Virus genome (UHGV): UHGV-1592390
Direction: 5' to 3' (one strand)
DNA from: a virus
DNA: 11,745 nucleotides
Below the pieces are notes generated by a model. It worked only from the letters and a program-made list of their open reading frames with translations. It was not told the origin of the DNA and ran no database searches. Positions 1-11,745 of the stretch are shown in pieces; position 1 is the stretch's first letter, and every line of letters begins with the position of its first letter. The translations under genes were made by a program, and so were the position numbers.

Positions 1-74
1 TGATAGAAACAGAAGCCACTGGAGCACCTCAAAAACACCATCATACACTAAATCAGTAAGTTGGCAGCATCACC
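1..74 (-). mobile_element. IS1 terminal fragment (IRL / insA-upstream end); element body lies upstream of the window
   Basis: Bases 1..74 are the reverse complement of the canonical first ~74 bp of IS1 (GGTGATGCTGCCAACTTACTGAT... terminal inverted repeat), ending exactly at 74 (...gcagcatcacc). Recognised from memory of the IS1 sequence; insA/insB would be on the minus strand. Confidence 0.9.
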
Positions 75-83
75 GGAGAGTTC

Positions 84-332
84 TTAATCAGCATTCAGGA
101 GCAATGCGTTATCTATGATGATCTGCTCCCATTCCTCGAATGCCCGATCGCGGACGCCCTGGGGAACGCTGTTAGTTTTGAAATCGACGACCGTCCGCCA
201 TTTTCCGTCCGGACGGTACATGCGCAGAGCTTTACTTCCCCCTTCCCTGCGCACCTCAACGTTATGCTTGTCAGCAAACTCTTGTAATGCTCGTAGCGTC
301 CCATGCTTTACTGTGTAGTATCGCTTTTTCAA
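84..332 (-). CDS. lxc: Small 82-aa protein, likely P1 Lxc/Bof-like modulator of C1 repressor
   Basis: Complete 82-codon ORF. TTG start at 332-330 overlaps the stop of the upstream ORF (TTGA), with a GGAGAG Shine-Dalgarno 5 nt upstream. Size and position (third gene after darB) match my recollection of P1 lxc/bof; the protein sequence itself was not recognised. Stop lies 9 bp from the IS1 end. Confidence 0.55.
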   Translation of the reverse strand: MKKRYYTVKHGTLRALQEFADKHNVEVRREGGSKALRMYRPDGKWRTVVDFKTNSVPQGVRDRAFEEWEQIIIDNALLLNAD

Positions 333-769
333 GTTTTCTCTCCAGCCTGTGCTAAGGCTTCAACTTCCAAATCGTAAGACTCAAACTCATAGTCCTGGTC
401 GTCAACCTCTTCAGGCACTGGCAGTAAATGCCAGGCTGAGTATATCTGACCATTATCAAAACGCTCCTGGCTGTAGAGCGTCGCGGCTATGAGTGTCAGC
501 GCCGGGCGGTCATAACGGTAAATTTTGCGAACGTCACGGTCAACGAGACGACCGAAATTACCATAACCGCGCTCCAGTAATAATTTTTTAATTTCCGGCC
601 AGTATGGGCCATAGCTGCGGTACAGGCGGGGATTTTTCAGTAATCGCCCGCGTAGCCCTGACAGGAAGAAATCAACGTATTCGTCTTCTGTCTTTCCTAA
701 CAATGCCGTACGCAGTACCGCCTCAAGATATGTTTTATTCGGTTTTATTGTATCAGATAGTGTGGCCAT
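329..769 (-). CDS. ulx: 146-aa protein between darB and lxc, probably P1 Ulx-like (Dar system accessory)
   Basis: Complete ORF with ATG at 769-767 and TGA stop overlapping the lxc start. Co-directional and tightly packed with darB, 33 bp downstream of its stop. No recognisable catalytic motif; assignment is by position only. No obvious Shine-Dalgarno; a GC hairpin sits just upstream. Confidence 0.55.
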   Translation of the reverse strand: MATLSDTIKPNKTYLEAVLRTALLGKTEDEYVDFFLSGLRGRLLKNPRLYRSYGPYWPEIKKLLLERGYGNFGRLVDRDVRKIYRYDRPALTLIAATLYSQERFDNGQIYSAWHLLPVPEEVDDQDYEFESYDLEVEALAQAGEKT

Positions 770-778
770 ATTATGCGA

Positions 779-796
779 CGCCCGGCGAACCGGGCG
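779..796 (-). other. GC-rich stem-loop between the darB stop and the ulx start (7-bp stem, UUCG loop on the transcript)
   Basis: Minus-strand transcript reads CGCCCGG-UUCG-CCGGGCG, a perfect 7-bp stem with a UUCG tetraloop, 6 nt after the darB stop and ending 9 nt before the ulx ATG. No U-tract follows, so it is not a typical intrinsic terminator. Confidence 0.4.
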
Positions 797-802
797 CTCC
801 TG

Positions 803-3800
803 TTATGCGTATTGTTGGATGACGGCCAGAACGTCCGCCACGTTGTGTTTTGTCTCGATAATCCACCAGTTACCCGGGAAATCGCTGTTCTTCGCCTTCG
901 CTGGCAGCCAGCGAGCGCCGAATTTCGCCTTGATTGCGTCTTTCGCACGGAAAAGAACGCCTTTCATGCCTGAGGCTTCCTGAAGCCCAAATACCTCGCC
1001 AGCGGCGAATTTTGGTGCGTACATCATCTTCAGGTCGGCGGTGGATACGCGATAATTCAGACCAAGAGACTGAGCTATGCTGGTGGCATCACCCTGTATT
1101 GATGATAACTCTTCTTGTTTCTCGTTTCTGGCGGCAATTTCTTCCTCCGTGATGTTGCCAAGGGCCAGGTTTATCCGATCAGCGTCGGCCTGTTTCTCTT
1201 CATCGGTGCGTCCGGCAAGAACCGTGTTAACTCTCTGCAATATCTCCACATGATTCTTGCGCATGCTGAGCAATTCCGGCGTAACCTCGTTAAGATCCAC
1301 CAGCCCAAGGATGGCAAGGTCGGAAAACATTGATACCAGGTTGTAGGTCATGCGATAGCTGAGTTGACCATAGGCTGATGGCAACTTCACCGCATCCATT
1401 TGATAGGCATCCATAAATTTAGAGCCGTCGTTTACGACATCCGCAATTGCCGGTGTGATTTTTCCTGTGGTGGCGGCCTCCCTGATTGCTGTTACCCACG
1501 ATTGAGTCAGCGCGGCGACTGCATGATTCAGATTGGCTTTCCGTTCTGCTGCAATGCGCGCACTTGCTGCGTCCATTGCCTGCTTGATCTCGTCTTTATT
1601 GCTGTAAATGCCAATGGTGCCAAACTGTGCTGTGGTGATCTCATAATCTGACGCCCGGAACTCATTGGTACCGAAAATGGCATTGGTGACTTCAAGTTCA
1701 GAATCCCCGTTACGAGTAGACCCCTGGCTTGTTTTTTCCGGCATTCTGGCGATCGCATCCGCTATTTTCTCCTGAATTGCTTCAGGGGATAGCGTATCTC
1801 CGTATGACGCGATTACATCGCCATAATTGGAGCCAAACAATTCAACCAGGAATGTTTCTGCCGAACGGATCTGGCGGTTATTCCCTTCCGACATCATACC
1901 AAGCACCCATTTTGCAATTGACGACTTCAGCGCGCCGTCACGGCGATCCGGGTAAACCGCATGCTTCAGTGGGTCCGTATAGGTGCCAACAAAATCAATG
2001 CTATAGCCTGACTCTGTAGTCTGAACGCCGTATGAGTCAGTGATTTTGATCATGCCGCGCTGCTGGAAACGGTAGAAATCGTCACAGGAAATGATGTCGT
2101 TAATCCCGGCGATGGAGACGCCACCACTGATTTTCTGCATAACAGCATCTTCATCGGGAGTTACATCCACCTGTTTATCCAGCGTCTTCACATCCCAGTT
2201 ACCCGATTTGGTGCCTTTGAAGGTAAAGATGATCTCCACGTCTGCGCGCTGGCTGTCGAAGTCCAGCGACTTAATGCGAACGATATCACCGGCACAATCG
2301 TAGTATTGGCCTACACGCCATGAGCGATCGCCGATAACAAGGAACTCACTCGCATGGTTAACCAGGTCAGGATCAACATCCAGAATGCCTTTATTTATTG
2401 CATCCTCCACCAGCGGGCGCAGGCGTTTGATATCCGTCGCGGCCTTCTGAGTACGGTTCAATAATTTCTCATAGCGGGAGATGGCTTGAGTGATATTAGC
2501 CTTGCGCTGAATGGCGCTTTTCAACGACGCGCGATACTGTGCTAACAACATACGGTCTGTGTGATGGACACTCCCCCAGCGGGCCTTCCAGTCTGCGTTA
2601 TCCGCTGCCTTGGCCATTGCCGCCTGTTTGAATTTAGCTACCTCGGCGGTGGTCTTTTCAAGTTCCGCTTTGCTTCGCTCTAATTCAGCGGTAAGTACCT
2701 CCACATCCTCGCCAGCTGCGTGCTGCGCCTTGATGTAGTTCTGAAGGTCGATAGTAGCCTGTTCTTTCTGGCGAGCGCGTTGCGCGGCTTTCGCCTTATC
2801 CATTTGAACCTGCATCATTGCCAGACGTTCGCCATCATCCTTAGCGGTATACATCTGCATTTCGATCATATCGTTGGCGTCGGCGTTCTCCATTTCAGAC
2901 TTATCTGAGCGGAGGATATCGGAGATCCAGCCTGCTTTACGCTTCAGCGTCTTCAGTCGGTATTCATCGAAAGAACCCTTGCCGCAGTAGTAGTGAACGC
3001 GAACGCTTGCACGGTTGGAACCAACTCGGGCACCGCGACCGTTACGCTGTGCGATACTGGCTGGTGTCCATGGCAACGTCAGATGATGGATGTCAGTTGT
3101 TCCTCGATGCAGGTTGATACCCACCTCTGCCTTTTTGTTGCAGATGATGATCGGAGTCCGGCCCTCCTGGAAGTCGGCAGCAATCTTTTCCAGCCCACCC
3201 AGCGACATTTCATTTTGCTGCGCGATATAGGCGTCATACAGAGCCATTTGCTCGTTGTATTTCGCTATCTGTGCATCTGTTGGTTCATCCGGTAGCTCTT
3301 TCGGTGGTTTAACCGCTTTCAGTTTCTTACCGGTTTTACCTGCCTCGGCAACCGTCTGAGCATTCAGGATCCCCACCTTTGAAGGTTCAAGGTTAAGAGC
3401 ATTGCAGATAATGCGCTTGAGCTTCTGGTGTTGCGTTTTTTCATCGGTGAAGATGATTTGCTTACCTTCCGGGAAAAACTCCTTCAGCGTGGCAATCAGC
3501 TTCGCGTATTTGGGCGTAACGGGGTGAGTTACGGTCTGTTCGTCAATGCCAAACTTGGCCAGGCGCTTATTCACTTCCTGCTCAAATGCTTCCGGTACCT
3601 GCAACTGAATAAACTCGCCCTTATCTATCAGGGAGTATTGCGATTGCTGCGTGATCGAATCATCACTGTCGTCGTCTTCGCTGGTGGCTTGTTTAGGCAA
3701 ACTGTCCGCCAGCTGCTGCACCGCATCGGCGTACTCCGGCAGGAAACGATAGGTGATCCTGCGATAGTACAGGTCCATGTCAGTACATACGCGGTCCATA

Positions 3801-6800
3801 TCCCTGATTATTGAGAAGATCGGACGGGCTTTCTCGTGCTCAATCACGCCGTCTTCATTGACCGAGGTCGTTACGCCATTGTTGGCTTTGGCTGCCGCTT
3901 CCGCCTGCTGACGCAATTCTTCATACGCCGCCAGTTGTTCTTCCGTAAGTGGTGCATCCTGCTGGTGTTCGTCCAGTTCCGGGATCTCCACGGTATCCTT
4001 AACGTCTTCCGCCGTTTTAAGCGTTGTCCAGCGATGGAATATGCCGCGCAGCGCATCAAGGTTTTCAAAGCCCACCAGCGCCATTTTTTCTTCAACTTCA
4101 CCGCTGATTTTCTGTACCGTTTCCAGCCTGGTCTTGCCGAAGAATTTTACGAAGTCATCAGGACTGTAGATCCCCATCTTCTGCCAGTATTCCTTCGGCA
4201 GAACATGAGAAAGCATGTTGTATGCATCGATCGGGGTGTTAACGACTGGCGTTGCAGTCAGGAGAACCGGTCCGCGCCCACCATTCTTTTTCATCAGGTA
4301 CGCGTTTTTAATTGCCATATCCCGCGCCGATTGCGCCACCGCGCTGGTGGGCAGATAGGCCAGTTGTGACGCTTCGCGACCATTTTTATAGCTATTGCGG
4401 TAGTTGTGACCTTCGTCAGCGATCACACTATCGAAGCCCATATCCTCAAAGTACGGATACTTCTCTGCTTTTTCGGTGCCGGTATCTGAATACTCCGACA
4501 ATACCCGGCGACGCGCGGCCTCTTTGCGGTGGGAGTCGGAGTCCATTGCGCTGGCTACGCGCCCGGCGGCAACGAAGTCATAAAGCATATCCTGTGCATG
4601 CTCATCTACGGTGTCATCACGTAGCGGAATGCGGGCGTATTGTTCTTTGGTAAACACGACTGCACGGTAATTTGAGTGCGGGATCGCGTTCATCCGCGCC
4701 GTGATAGTGGCTTCATCTGCCAGCTTAAGAGCATCGCGCATAACTGGAGTGCCATCAGTACCAAGAACAGGTTTACCGTTCTCATCGAGCACCGGCACCT
4801 GGCGAATCTGATCGCCATCCATCAGCACATCAAGACCGACGAACAGGTAGTTACTGAATGCCTCTTCACTCAGGAATTCTTTTGCTTCGTAATACCAGTT
4901 TTCCAGCACTGATTTAGGCACTACATACGCAGTACGGGTGGAGCGACCGTTCTCATAGTTGAACGCCTCAAGCGCCAGCGCGGTCGTGGTTTTACCCAGC
5001 CCGGTGCCGAAGCCCAGGATGCCGCGCCCATCTTCGGACAGTCGGCGCACCTCGCTATTCTGGTAATCAAATGGCTGGCGCTTACCGCTTAATCCCTTCA
5101 ACCCAAGCGGATCGCCAGAGTGTTCATACGGGATATTGCTATTGAACACATCGTTGTATTTGGCAACCAGCTCATCGTAGCGATCGTGCGTCTTGATCCA
5201 CTTATTGAACTGGTCCTCAAGCAGTGCCATCTGCTCGCGGTAGCCGTTCGCCGTCGCGCTATCTTTGCCACCGATACGCGCACCATTGAGATACTTTTCC
5301 AGCTGTGCCGGGAACCCGGTCGCGTTTTCACCTGATTTACGGTCCCACTCGTAGCGGATCTCGCCTGTTTCTTTATCCTTGCGCTGGACGACACCGTATC
5401 GGTGCCCGACGAACAGACCATCACCACCGTGATAGGTGTCAGAAACCATTTCGTCGCCTTCCAGCTGCACTGACTGCACATAGCGAAGATCCGGATAGCC
5501 GTTTTCCTGCAAAAATTCCAGAATGACGGAACGGTCGAACCAACGGCTATTGAGCTTAAAGCGGATATTCTCTGCTGGCGTCTTGATGCGCTTCTCTTCG
5601 ATCGCTGCCAGCTGATTAAGGACGTTGTTCTTTACTGGACCGTCGGGGAGTGTGGCAAGGAATTCCTGTTTTGGTACCACTATCTCGTTAATGTCGCCGC
5701 TGGTGGCGCGGGCGAACGGAACAATCCCGCCATACGGTGAAACCGCAATGCCAGGGGTGCTGGCCAATAAATTAAGCAACTCGTCATCACTGGCTGGCAG
5801 TTCGCCGGTAAACGCAAGGCGGAAATCATCGAGCTGGATTGGATCGCGAGTGAGATCACTGTAGAGATAACGCAGGGTGTCCTGATAGCTGGTGGAGTCA
5901 TAACTGGCGCTGGAATCATGCGTAACCAGTTTTCCTGTCAGCTCGTCAGAAATAGTGCCATCCAGCTTAATTGCACCACGGAAAGCAAACCAGGCGCGCG
6001 CACCGCTCCCCGATAATTTCGCTATCGGACCGCGACCGGGGTTACCAAAACGGTCAATCTCTGCCTGCAAACGGGATACCAGAGAAAGGCGCTGCTGTTC
6101 GATTTGTTCAGCACTATGCCCGGCGGCCTTCATGTCCTGATATTCAATTAACATCCGGCCAATCATCGCCCCGCGATACAAGCGTTCACGGTATTTTTCA
6201 GGCTGGCTGTTAATCCAGTCCACCAGCTGCACCATATCGTCGCTGATTGATGTGGTGTACTTATCGCGGACATTTGCCATCTGGGTAAATGTCATACCGA
6301 GACGGCCTTCTGTTGTAGTCAGGTTACGCTGAAGAGCCTCCCAGCTGTCCGCGCCATAACTGGCAACATCAATCTTCAGCTCCTTCCCTGCATCAGCTTC
6401 AATCCAGCGACCACCAGCATATTTTTGCCATACGCCATTAATCAGGCGCATTTCCCCTTCATCAACAACGTCTGCGGTCGGTGACGGTTCAGCCATATTG
6501 AGCAAAGACCAGTCGATACGACTTTCGAAACGATGAATCAGCTTCGCTTTAAGAGCCTGGTTATCAATCTGCCCGTCGGCACGAACCTCAATACGCCCCT
6601 GGAATCCCTTCTCCTGAGTGCCATGAACAAACCGGCGGCCGTCCTTTTCAAACCACTTGCCAGAAATAAACGTTGGCCAAAGCACATTTGCCGATTCAAG
6701 AGTGCCTTCATCCACCAGGGGGATTTTCTCAGCCATCTCCGCCGGATGTTTGCGCATCAGCACCACGTCAACGACCGTACTGGTCCCGTTTGCGTCAAAA

Positions 6801-7570
6801 GTACCGGTAGGCAAGCGGTGGGCACCAAGAAATTCAGCTTTCCGTGATAGGCGCAGGCGTAACCGCTTCATGTTTGAACCTGAAACAATGGACGGCGGCA
6901 CAATCACGCACATGAATCCGCCTGGCTTTATCTTGTCCAGCATGCGGAGCATGAAGTAAGAACCCATGTCCGTTTCTTCTGCGTAAGGCTTATCGATGTT
7001 GCGTGTGTTATCACGACCACCGAACGGAACGTTACCCACAACATGGTCGAATGAATCGTTAGGCGTGCTTACAGCCAGCTGTTCGAACGGGGAAATCTGT
7101 ACGCTGTCTTCCGGGTGTAACAGCTGGTTTATACGACCGGAAACACTGCTGATCTCAGTCGCAGTCATCACCGTACCAACCGGTTTTGTCTCATTAAAAA
7201 CGCCGGTGCCCGCCGATGGTTCCAGAGTGTTACCTACGTCCGCGCCGTAGAGCTTCATGATCTCCCAGACACCTTCAGCGATCGGCTTTGGTGTGTAATA
7301 TTCGGAGACGGACCCGCCAATGCCGCCTTCACCGGTGTACCCAGCCAGGATCTGGCGCTGTTCATCTGTCAGTGTCGCGCCGTCCACCAGCGAATTAAGC
7401 AAATCTATCGCCTTCTGATTCGCCTCCCGGCGCAGTCGGTCATAGCTTTTGCCTTCCACCTTTTCCACGCCGTATTTAATCGGCGCTCGGTGAGATGTTA
7501 TTGCCCTAATGTATTTCAATATTTCGCTGACACTTGAACAGCGAAACACCCCCATAGATAGCTTGTTCAT
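803..7570 (-). CDS. darB: Giant (2255 aa) N6-adenine methyltransferase / SF2 helicase fusion; P1 DarB-like antirestriction protein
   Basis: Uninterrupted 6768-nt ORF with ATG at 7570 and an AAGGA Shine-Dalgarno 6 nt upstream. Gamma-class amino-methyltransferase motifs read from the translation: YYTP (aa 91-94), motif I LEPSAGTGVF (aa 116-125, nt ~7196-7225), motif IV NVPF (aa 180-183, nt 7022-7033). Helicase motifs: Walker A GFGTGLGKTT (aa 853-862, nt 4985-5014), DEGH (aa 1052-1055, nt 4406-4417), motif III LLTATP (aa 1103-1108), motif VI QRNGRGAR (aa 1508-1515, nt 3026-3049). Length and architecture match my recollection of P1 DarB. The C-terminal ~700 aa has a coiled-coil-like stretch and no recognisable motif. 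Confidence 0.85.
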   Translation of the reverse strand: MNKLSMGVFRCSSVSEILKYIRAITSHRAPIKYGVEKVEGKSYDRLRREANQKAIDLLNSLVDGATLTDEQRQILAGYTGEGGIGGSVSEYYTPKPIAEGVWEIMKLYGADVGNTLEPSAGTGVFNETKPVGTVMTATEISSVSGRINQLLHPEDSVQISPFEQLAVSTPNDSFDHVVGNVPFGGRDNTRNIDKPYAEETDMGSYFMLRMLDKIKPGGFMCVIVPPSIVSGSNMKRLRLRLSRKAEFLGAHRLPTGTFDANGTSTVVDVVLMRKHPAEMAEKIPLVDEGTLESANVLWPTFISGKWFEKDGRRFVHGTQEKGFQGRIEVRADGQIDNQALKAKLIHRFESRIDWSLLNMAEPSPTADVVDEGEMRLINGVWQKYAGGRWIEADAGKELKIDVASYGADSWEALQRNLTTTEGRLGMTFTQMANVRDKYTTSISDDMVQLVDWINSQPEKYRERLYRGAMIGRMLIEYQDMKAAGHSAEQIEQQRLSLVSRLQAEIDRFGNPGRGPIAKLSGSGARAWFAFRGAIKLDGTISDELTGKLVTHDSSASYDSTSYQDTLRYLYSDLTRDPIQLDDFRLAFTGELPASDDELLNLLASTPGIAVSPYGGIVPFARATSGDINEIVVPKQEFLATLPDGPVKNNVLNQLAAIEEKRIKTPAENIRFKLNSRWFDRSVILEFLQENGYPDLRYVQSVQLEGDEMVSDTYHGGDGLFVGHRYGVVQRKDKETGEIRYEWDRKSGENATGFPAQLEKYLNGARIGGKDSATANGYREQMALLEDQFNKWIKTHDRYDELVAKYNDVFNSNIPYEHSGDPLGLKGLSGKRQPFDYQNSEVRRLSEDGRGILGFGTGLGKTTTALALEAFNYENGRSTRTAYVVPKSVLENWYYEAKEFLSEEAFSNYLFVGLDVLMDGDQIRQVPVLDENGKPVLGTDGTPVMRDALKLADEATITARMNAIPHSNYRAVVFTKEQYARIPLRDDTVDEHAQDMLYDFVAAGRVASAMDSDSHRKEAARRRVLSEYSDTGTEKAEKYPYFEDMGFDSVIADEGHNYRNSYKNGREASQLAYLPTSAVAQSARDMAIKNAYLMKKNGGRGPVLLTATPVVNTPIDAYNMLSHVLPKEYWQKMGIYSPDDFVKFFGKTRLETVQKISGEVEEKMALVGFENLDALRGIFHRWTTLKTAEDVKDTVEIPELDEHQQDAPLTEEQLAAYEELRQQAEAAAKANNGVTTSVNEDGVIEHEKARPIFSIIRDMDRVCTDMDLYYRRITYRFLPEYADAVQQLADSLPKQATSEDDDSDDSITQQSQYSLIDKGEFIQLQVPEAFEQEVNKRLAKFGIDEQTVTHPVTPKYAKLIATLKEFFPEGKQIIFTDEKTQHQKLKRIICNALNLEPSKVGILNAQTVAEAGKTGKKLKAVKPPKELPDEPTDAQIAKYNEQMALYDAYIAQQNEMSLGGLEKIAADFQEGRTPIIICNKKAEVGINLHRGTTDIHHLTLPWTPASIAQRNGRGARVGSNRASVRVHYYCGKGSFDEYRLKTLKRKAGWISDILRSDKSEMENADANDMIEMQMYTAKDDGERLAMMQVQMDKAKAAQRARQKEQATIDLQNYIKAQHAAGEDVEVLTAELERSKAELEKTTAEVAKFKQAAMAKAADNADWKARWGSVHHTDRMLLAQYRASLKSAIQRKANITQAISRYEKLLNRTQKAATDIKRLRPLVEDAINKGILDVDPDLVNHASEFLVIGDRSWRVGQYYDCAGDIVRIKSLDFDSQRADVEIIFTFKGTKSGNWDVKTLDKQVDVTPDEDAVMQKISGGVSIAGINDIISCDDFYRFQQRGMIKITDSYGVQTTESGYSIDFVGTYTDPLKHAVYPDRRDGALKSSIAKWVLGMMSEGNNRQIRSAETFLVELFGSNYGDVIASYGDTLSPEAIQEKIADAIARMPEKTSQGSTRNGDSELEVTNAIFGTNEFRASDYEITTAQFGTIGIYSNKDEIKQAMDAASARIAAERKANLNHAVAALTQSWVTAIREAATTGKITPAIADVVNDGSKFMDAYQMDAVKLPSAYGQLSYRMTYNLVSMFSDLAILGLVDLNEVTPELLSMRKNHVEILQRVNTVLAGRTDEEKQADADRINLALGNITEEEIAARNEKQEELSSIQGDATSIAQSLGLNYRVSTADLKMMYAPKFAAGEVFGLQEASGMKGVLFRAKDAIKAKFGARWLPAKAKNSDFPGNWWIIETKHNVADVLAVIQQYA

Positions 7571-10367
<2,797 letters not shown>

Positions 10368-10371
10368 CCAC

Positions 10372-10405
10372 CAAAAATAACCCCGGCGGCTGCCGGGGTT
10401 CTCGT
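10372..10405. terminator. Bidirectional intrinsic terminator between convergent pro (+) and lyz/orf84 (-) transcripts
   Basis: Perfect 7-bp GC stem CCCCGGC (10381-10387), loop GGCT, GCCGGGG (10392-10398). On the minus strand it is followed by TTATTTTTGG (strong U-tract); on the plus strand it is preceded by an A-tract and followed by the weaker TTCTCGTT. Lies 14 nt after the pro stop and 14 nt after the orf84 stop. Confidence 0.7.
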
Positions 10406-10411
10406 TAACTA

Positions 10412-10666
10412 TTATCGCCTTCGCCTGCGTGCCATATATTTGCGCACCGCGCGGCGTGGACAATCTGAAGCGGTTTCTTTCTGCTGCATCAATCTTGCAG
10501 CCATGCTCAAAAATGTCAGGCACAGCCGAAGCCCGGCATACAATAGCGGTTCCAGTGGCCACGTCTCATTGAGCACATATACCGCCATGAAAATCGAGTC
10601 AAAAACTATCGCCGCCAGCGATAACTTCATTGTCGAAAGTCGGCGGAGCTGCCGGAGTTTATTCAT
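10412..10666 (-). CDS. Hypothetical 84-aa small membrane protein, translationally coupled to lyz; holin-like features
   Basis: ATG at 10666-10664 overlaps the lyz stop (ATGAATAA arrangement). One clear hydrophobic segment (LSLAAIVFDSIFMAVYVL), a second weaker one, and a strongly basic C-terminus (RRAVRKYMARRRRR). Ends 14 nt before the terminator hairpin. Codon usage looks ordinary. No homology could be checked. Confidence 0.4.
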   Translation of the reverse strand: MNKLRQLRRLSTMKLSLAAIVFDSIFMAVYVLNETWPLEPLLYAGLRLCLTFLSMAARLMQQKETASDCPRRAVRKYMARRRRR

Positions 10667-11216
10667 TGACCAGTCCCGTCAGGCAAAGCTGGCGTTCTTT
10701 TTCACGGCGAATCTTTAAACCTCGCAGGGGCACGCCGTTACTGTTCACGAAATCAGGGAGATGGTTACACATATTCACCCATTCCCCTTTCTGCGCCCAC
10801 TTGTGGATGGACGTTTCTACTCGCATGCCTCGCGCTTTGCTGTAGTAGGTCCGTAAGCTATTGCATCCCATATTGAATGCCGCGCTTGTCATTGCACTGA
10901 AGGCATTATCGGGCATGTCTTTGCCCCGGAAGTGCTGATTAATACAGCGTTCAGCGATCAGGATATTCTTTTCCCAATCAGCGGCGATTTGCTGGTCTGT
11001 TTTTCGCACACCCGGCGTTACCCCGTGTGTATTACCGATCCCGTCAGTCCATACCCCTGCCGGGCACATGTATGGATCACGTCGGCAACCTTCAGCGTTA
11101 CCAATCAGCTCAAGCCCCGCCTGGTTGGTTCGCACATTGCCATTACCCATCACGATGGTAATCATCACCGCGATAGCGCAAATTGCACCGCCTCCTGCGG
11201 CTGTTTTTCCCTTCAT
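10659..11216 (-). CDS. lyz: SAR (signal-arrest-release) endolysin, P1 Lyz, 185 aa
   Basis: From ATG 11216-11214 (GAGGT Shine-Dalgarno 5 nt upstream) the translation begins MKGKTAAGGGAICAIAVMITIVMGNGNVRTN..., with the N-terminal SAR transmembrane segment containing Cys13, then E42 and the Cys44/Cys51 pair (NAEGCRRDPYMC) characteristic of P1 Lyz as I recall it. The ORF track's longer 218-aa version adds an in-frame 33-aa extension with no ribosome-binding site. Confidence 0.93.
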   Translation of the reverse strand: MKGKTAAGGGAICAIAVMITIVMGNGNVRTNQAGLELIGNAEGCRRDPYMCPAGVWTDGIGNTHGVTPGVRKTDQQIAADWEKNILIAERCINQHFRGKDMPDNAFSAMTSAAFNMGCNSLRTYYSKARGMRVETSIHKWAQKGEWVNMCNHLPDFVNSNGVPLRGLKIRREKERQLCLTGLVNE

Positions 11217-11299
11217 AAAGACCTCATAAGCGAATTTTTTACGCTCCAGGACAAACACCCATTCACAGCCAATACCGACTGACTCGATCCCTTTAGAAG

Positions 11300-11326
11300 A
11301 CACAGGATAATGCAAATCACTTGTTA
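11300..11326 (-). promoter_or_regulatory. Candidate late promoter for lyz (shared box plus -10-like hexamer)
   Basis: On the lyz-sense strand: TAACAAGTGA (complement of 11317-11326), 4 nt, then CATTAT (complement of 11307-11312). Same decamer and geometry as upstream of prt. Predicted start near 11300, about 84 nt upstream of the lyz ATG. Confidence 0.35.
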
Positions 11327-11366
11327 GCTACGTTTCAAAGATATACATTATTGCTCTAATTATTTT
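11321..11366 (+). promoter_or_regulatory. Candidate sigma70 promoter for ssb overlapped by a C1-repressor operator-like site
   Basis: -35 TTGTTA (11321-11326), 17-bp spacer, -10 TACATT (11344-11349). Immediately downstream, ATTGCTCTAATTATTTT (11350-11366) matches the P1 C1 operator consensus ATTGCTCTAATAAATTT as I recall it at 15 of 17 positions. ssb GTG start follows at 11386. Confidence 0.5.
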
Positions 11367-11385
11367 ATTTTATTAGGTAAGAAAA

Positions 11386-11670
11386 GTGGCACAACGCGGT
11401 GTAAACAAAGTCATCCTGATTGGTACCCTGGGGCAAGACCCGGAGATCAGGTATATACCAAATGGCGGAGCAGTCGGAAGACTCAGCATCGCAACGAATG
11501 AATCATGGCGCGACAAGCAAACGGGCCAACAGAAAGAGCAAACAGAATGGCATAAAGTCGTTTTGTTCGGAAAACTTGCTGAAATTGCGAGTGAGTATTT
11601 ACGAAAAGGTTCTCAGGTCTACATCGAAGGGAAACTTAAAACCCGTAAGTGGACAGATGACGCCGGTGTA
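11386..11670 (+). pseudogene. ssb: Single-stranded DNA-binding protein gene, 5' portion only (codons 1-95), disrupted by IS1
   Basis: GTG start at 11386 with an AGGTAAG Shine-Dalgarno-like sequence upstream. Translation [95 protein letters not shown] aligns with the N-terminal OB-fold of E. coli SSB ([31 protein letters not shown]...KWTDQSG). After codon 95 the frame runs into IS1 sequence and is open to the window edge; the rest of the OB-fold, the Gly-rich linker and the acidic C-terminal tail are missing. Not in the ORF track because no stop occurs in-window. Confidence 0.85.
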
Positions 11671-11745
11671 GGTAATGACTCCAACTTATTGATAGTGTTT
11701 TATGTTCAGATAATGCCCGATGACTTTGTCATGCAGCTCCACCGA
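11671..11745 (-). mobile_element. IS1 terminal fragment (IRR / insB-distal end); element body continues downstream of the window
   Basis: GGTAATGACTCCAACTTATTGATAGTG... from 11671 is the IS1 right inverted repeat and adjacent sequence, read as the reverse complement of the canonical orientation. Same orientation as the IS1 end at 1..74. Confidence 0.9.

Follow-up and report, generated by a model that had tools for sequence, protein, structure and literature searches.

An orthologue of the P1 operator Ossb (former Op21) upstream of an IS1-truncated ssb gene in a P1-like DNA segment

Does the AT-rich intergenic region upstream of ssb in virus genome UHGV-1592390 carry an operator for the P1 repressor C1, and what would such an operator control now that ssb is interrupted by an insertion sequence? 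The DNA analysed, hereafter the window, is a stretch of 11,745 nucleotides in which a preliminary description, made from the letters alone, had noticed a C1 operator-like site. In phage P1, the binding sites of C1 are single asymmetric 17-bp operators dispersed throughout the genome, and Lxc (also called Bof) strengthens the complexes that C1 forms with them. Reports of C1 control over P1 ssb go back to 1989 and 1999, and the underlying arrangement, in which one asymmetric operator covers an early promoter at its start, has been known in P1 for decades. Operators Op21, Op68 and Op88, together with the control of ssb by C1, were reportedly described by Citron, Velleman and Schuster in 1989, and work on P1 Ssb by Lehnherr and colleagues in 1999 is said to have found ssb-P1 fully repressed in lysogens.

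The operator and its promoter

The site lies at positions 11350-11366 of the window (plus strand) and reads ATTGCTCTAATTATTTT. It agreed with the asymmetric 17-bp C1 operator consensus ATTGCTCTAATAAATTT at 15 of 17 positions, exactly as the preliminary description had stated; the two mismatches are T12 and T14, whereas P1 Ossb displays a single one (T12). Sites with at most three mismatches to the consensus numbered two in the whole 11.7-kb window, against 0.01 expected from 200 dinucleotide-preserving shuffles.

Comparison with P1 and P7 was made on an ungapped alignment of 111 columns (mean identity 99%) including two P1 records, AF234172.1 and AF125376.2, and the P7 record AF503408.1. The site fell exactly onto an annotated operator in all three: 21015-21031 in AF234172.1 ('monovalent C1-controlled operator Ossb; corresponds to former Op21'), 5683-5699 in AF125376.2 ('operator 21 (Op21); binding site for the major P1 repressor protein C1') and 24773-24789 in AF503408.1 ('monovalent C1-controlled operator Op(ssb); controls expression of ssb'). 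The sole difference within the operator was position 14, which is T in the window and A in both P1 and P7, so that 16 of the 17 bases are shared with P1 Op21 (also under M25412). Placement relative to lyz, its late promoter LPlyz, the -35 and -10 hexamers of the ssb promoter P2ssb, the ribosome binding site and the GTG start of ssb was the same as in P1. P7 displayed an equivalent locus and annotation, but with A14 in its operator and an intact ssb. Judging from this alignment, segment 11350-11366 is the positional orthologue of P1 Op21/Ossb. The site is thus real and was read correctly in the preliminary description, yet it is a rediscovery of an operator that is already known in P1; what is new here, the one-base operator allele and the IS1-disrupted ssb, is minor in both cases.

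The 60 bp upstream of the operator were identical in the window and in P1. They contain the -35 hexamer TTGTTA (11321-11326, plus strand) and the -10 hexamer TACATT (11344-11349, plus strand) of P2ssb, formerly Pr21, identical to the minus_35_signal and minus_10_signal annotated for this promoter at 20986-20991 and 21009-21014 in P1. With the promoter assignment taken from the P1 record, the first operator base is the one right after the -10 hexamer, and the transcription start is therefore expected inside the operator. The earlier suggestion that the site adjoins the -10 and start region of the ssb promoter was accordingly correct. Downstream follows the ssb ribosome binding site (11370-11378, plus strand), which matches 5703-5711 of AF125376.2 ('ribosomal binding site of ssb-P1'). 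LPlyz, with its -22 box and -10, occupies 11304-11322 on the minus strand; it is identical to 20969-20987 of P1 and is divergent from P2ssb, the two promoters standing back to back. A generic scan for sigma-70 promoters and terminators called neither between 11200 and 11450. P2ssb (TTGTTA-17-TACATT) was missed since it fits at 8 of 12 positions, which is under the cut-off, and the negative scan is no evidence against the annotated promoter. Position 11383 is A in the window and T in P1 (TAAGAA versus TAAGAT), whereby the final -10 T of a second and merely predicted promoter, P1ssb, is lost. The same A is common to P7 and to sibling plasmids of the window, so the predicted P1ssb is not conserved.

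The preliminary description had proposed that the site be scored against a matrix of known P1 operators, a poor score being counted against it. The 20 C1 operators annotated in AF234172 were extracted and a log-odds matrix was built from 19 of them, Ossb being excluded. This matrix gave 24.2 bits to the window site, 25.7 to P1 Ossb and 27.8 to the consensus, the T14 allele ranging 1.4 bits below P1 Ossb. In a leave-one-out ranking the window site came about 9th of 21, above Oref, Olpa, Omat and OpmgRa (the validated operators of ref, lpa, mat and pmgR); being in the upper half of the annotated P1 operators, its score is not a poor one. When the whole P1 genome was scanned, annotated operators reached 14.7-27.8 bits, the degenerate Oc1b excepted, and sequence devoid of operator annotation stayed at or below 12.7 bits apart from two sites, at 17.9 and 16.0 bits. 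For Omat (Op2b), the record AF234172 annotates 18 bases on the minus strand (2628-2645), whereas the consensus-like sequence CATGCACTAATAAATAT is found on the plus strand at 2628-2644; the strand given in this record therefore looks wrong.

Both departures from the consensus have precedents among the annotated P1 operators. T at position 14 occurred in five of the 20 (O26/Op82, OpmgRa/Op86a, Oc1e/Op99e, Orlf and Oc1c) and T at position 12 in four, Ossb itself included. Like the window site, the monovalent operators O26/Op82 (ATTGCACTAATAATTTT), Oc1e/Op99e and OpmgRa/Op86a display the 17-bp asymmetric motif with T14, but they are found at other loci and control other genes. An inverted second half-site, as in the bivalent operators Op72ab and Op99ab, was also looked for: the lone overlapping match on the reverse strand scored just 3.3 bits, which indicates that Ossb is monovalent here, in agreement with its annotation.

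A set of 84 P1-like contigs, taken from IMG/VR and GTDB, served to survey operator variation. Allele ATTGCTCTAATTAATTT was by far the most frequent (71/84), followed by ATTGCTCTAATCATTTT in seven contigs, GTTGCTCTAATTATTTT in three, ATTGCTCTAATTGATTT in two and ATTGCTCTAGTTGATTT in a single one. Positions 2-9, 11 and 15-17 were invariant in this set, changes being limited to positions 1, 10, 12, 13 and 14. Variable columns amounted to 5/17 in the operator and to 14/70 and 6/16 in its flanks, figures that come from 84 very close relatives and from a search pattern that itself fixed part of the flank. Overall, conservation was not higher in the operator than in the flanks; with relatives this near the comparison counts for little, and the informative part is the position-specific pattern. 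The window allele ATTGCTCTAATTATTTT was encountered in none of these 84 contigs. Among 490 P1-like plasmids from PLSDB, on the other hand, 12 (in E. coli and Klebsiella) carried the exact 85-bp window allele (11316-11400), all with an annotated ssb at this place, which points to a minor circulating allele and not to a lesion tied to the IS1 event. A pattern scan of genome contigs returned mostly chance matches in unrelated MAGs; three of its hits were P1-like (two from Escherichia and one from a 'Proteobacteria' MAG, with a P1-type operator).

A P1-like segment bounded by IS1 and its truncated ssb

The window was about 99% identical to phage P1 across lxc-ulx-darB-prt-pro-lydED-lyz-ssb, and its genes followed the P1 order: lxc (84-332, minus strand), ulx, darB (803-7570, minus strand), prt, pro, lydE/lydD, lyz (minus strand) and ssb (plus strand). 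P1 homology begins at base 74. The preceding bases (1-73, plus strand) aligned to the right end of the P1 IS1; they represent the final 73 bases of a further IS1 copy, which points the same way as the copy at the right end of the window. This left IS1 end stands where P1 has mod after lxc. Positions 73-11671 gave single-piece matches to P1-like plasmids with 99.5-99.8% identity, and the last 1.1 kb up to base 11671, where IS1 takes over, were 98.5-99.2% identical to P1, P7, SJ46, RCS47 and other Punavirus records. In the phage, plasmid and E. coli collections, no record matched the window from end to end as one unbroken stretch; full-coverage matches consisted of two to four joined pieces with 98.3-98.7% identity. 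On these alignments, the window looks like a draft-assembly contig broken at IS1 repeats. Since both ends are IS1 in the same orientation, a contig break is probable, with two or more IS1 copies bordering the P1 segment, or with the segment lying between the ends of one and the same copy. As judged from its relatives, the window is carried by a P1-like plasmid prophage.

The ssb gene starts with GTG at 11386 and retains the first 95 codons of P1 ssb (11386-11670, plus strand), the translation being 100% identical to residues 1-95 of P1 Ssb. After codon 95 the frame is broken and reads on into the terminal inverted repeat of IS1 (GGTAATGACTCC...) at 11671. The start of this IS1 copy occupies 11671-11745 (plus strand), as recognized from the junction alignment and from 100% matches to IS1 in many records; the truncated ssb-IS1 fusion mentioned in the preliminary description was therefore confirmed. 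In plasmid NZ_CP061756.1, which has the identical junction, translation showed that the frame stops after 26 IS1-encoded residues. P1 itself has an intact ssb, and its resident IS1 is located about 1.1 kb further on, after isaA.

Against the Pfam SSB profile (PF00436), the fusion covered positions 1-93 of 104 and the intact P1 Ssb positions 1-100. The fusion lacks the last part of the OB fold as well as the linker and the acidic tip DFDDDIPF that closes P1 Ssb; it consequently falls short of the complete OB fold and acidic C-terminal tip by which a bacterial-type SSB is recognized. The truncated Ssb-IS1 protein is probably non-functional, as far as can be predicted from its sequence.

IS1 was inserted at the identical ssb nucleotide in two IncY P1-like plasmids, NZ_CP061756.1 and NZ_CP034659.1, the latter being the ATCC 98082 cointegrate. 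Both differ from the window by a P1-type operator and by an ssb allele with about 10 differing positions. In both, the IS1 in ssb is followed by mrkABCDF and then by a second IS1, whereas the window ends inside IS1. Insertion at the same nucleotide of different ssb alleles implies, on this comparison, either recombination after one insertion event or a hot spot for IS1.

Probable immunity control of the truncated gene

The lxc (bof) gene (84-332, minus strand), encoding the co-repressor that enhances C1 binding, is intact, with 82/82 residues identical to P1 Lxc and a stop codon 10 bp from the IS1 end. The P1 record describes its product as 'modulator of C1 action; enhances binding of C1 to all its operators'. 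In P1 the repressor gene c1 is found at a distance of about 20 kb; it lies outside the window, and its presence in the element that carries the window is deduced from relatives. NZ_CP061756.1, with the same ssb::IS1 junction, encodes a 'phage repressor protein C1'. This plasmid is heavily rearranged, with IS1-flanked mrkABCDF, ars genes, a heat-resistance island and IS26 copies; besides C1 it retains Ant, Icd, KilA, Lpa and the IncY replicon. By analogy, the element carrying the window probably retains immunity as well. In a P1 c1.100 lysogen induced by heat, ssb was measured by rt-qPCR among the C1-controlled genes, and ref displayed lower expression than ssb, dmt and kilA, with a slightly later peak (PMC4713147).

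The preliminary description had placed ssb under control of the immunity repressor, a proposal supported by orthology to Op21/Ossb, which three GenBank records annotate as C1-controlled or C1-binding. Annotation and literature concern the P1 allele, and C1 would be expected to bind the T14 allele likewise. The monovalent Ossb comes right after the -10 of the sigma-70 promoter P2ssb; because of this position directly 3' of the -10, bound C1 would cover and occlude the transcription start and block ssb in the lysogen. Lxc/Bof, encoded in the same window, would assist C1 binding. Inactivation of C1, whether through Coi, through Ant or, for c1.100, through heat, would let the promoter fire. In the window this promoter-operator unit is intact save for an A-to-T change at operator position 14 that is presumably tolerated. 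Since ssb is cut at codon 95 by IS1, the regulated product would be a truncated Ssb with a 26-residue IS1-encoded tail. Taken as a whole, the reading that we favour, with a probability of roughly 0.93, is that of a P1-family Ossb (Op21) and a C1-repressed P2ssb now driving an IS1-truncated ssb. Its sequence, orthology, matrix score and the truncation of ssb were observed directly.

Other readings were weighed against this one. That the site is a chance match of no regulatory meaning could be argued from the AT-rich spacer and from the generic promoter scan, which was empty there. Yet the best scores of 200 Markov-1 random windows had a mean of 9.6 bits (sd 2.9) and a maximum of 20.7, all below the 24.2 bits of the site, and neither the expectation of 0.01 sites nor the exact coincidence with an annotated operator is in keeping with chance; the probability left to this reading is negligible. 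It is also quite unlikely that A14T, on top of T12, lowers C1 affinity enough for the ssb promoter to leak in the lysogen. Such a weakening would agree with two consensus mismatches instead of one in P1, with the loss of 1.4 bits and with the minority status of the allele (12 of 490 plasmids and none of 84 contigs), but T14 and T12 are both used by annotated P1 operators (five and four, respectively, with Ossb counted), four of these operators (Oref, Olpa, Omat and OpmgRa) score lower than the window site, and P1-like plasmids that are otherwise intact have kept the allele.

The operator might also be an orphan to which nothing binds: the 11.6-kb P1 segment would then be a remnant, bounded by IS1, whose replicon or cell has lost c1, and the promoter of the truncated ssb would be constitutive. 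IS1 at both window ends, the absence of c1 from the window itself and the heavy rearrangement of sibling plasmids, with their cargo islands, are all compatible with this possibility. However, IS1 at both ends resembles the break of a short-read contig at a repeat, complete P1-like plasmids match the segment at 99.5-99.8% identity, and the rearranged NZ_CP061756.1 has kept c1, ant, icd, kilA, lpa and its IncY replicon; the orphan state is considered unlikely. A more speculative extension would combine a leaky T12/T14 Ossb with a truncated Ssb that has lost its C-terminal tip but in which most of the OB fold is preserved; such a protein would be scarce in lysogens and abundant after induction, and it would interfere with host SSB tetramers. 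IS1 at the exact same nucleotide in different ssb alleles would fit selection for such a product as well as a hot spot, but we regard this scenario as very improbable. Under the favoured reading of a C1-repressed P2ssb, the significance of the locus beyond its correct annotation is slight: an IS1-bounded fragment is assigned to a P1-like plasmid prophage that has kept the immunity-controlled ssb promoter, and a minor natural allele of Op21 is recorded together with an IS1 disruption of ssb.

Other operator-like sites in the window and in P1

A second C1 operator-like sequence, ATTGCCCTAATGTATTT, was found at positions 7500-7516 of the window (plus strand), corresponding to 17166-17182 of P1 AF234172. 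It has three mismatches to the consensus and scored 16.0 bits, which is above the annotated Oc1c and near Orlf and Olpa. It falls inside the opening codons of darB, a gene of the minus strand, and is directed toward prt, with the late promoter LPpro about 70 bp further downstream. The sequence is identical in P1, where it carries no operator annotation. Its score exceeds the average best score of the random windows by about 2 sd, and chance may account for it. The top-scoring unannotated site of the P1 genome was ATTGCTATAATTATTTG (AF234172 1485-1501, plus strand; 17.9 bits), which is located in the cre-c8 interval, a short way upstream of the start codon of c8.
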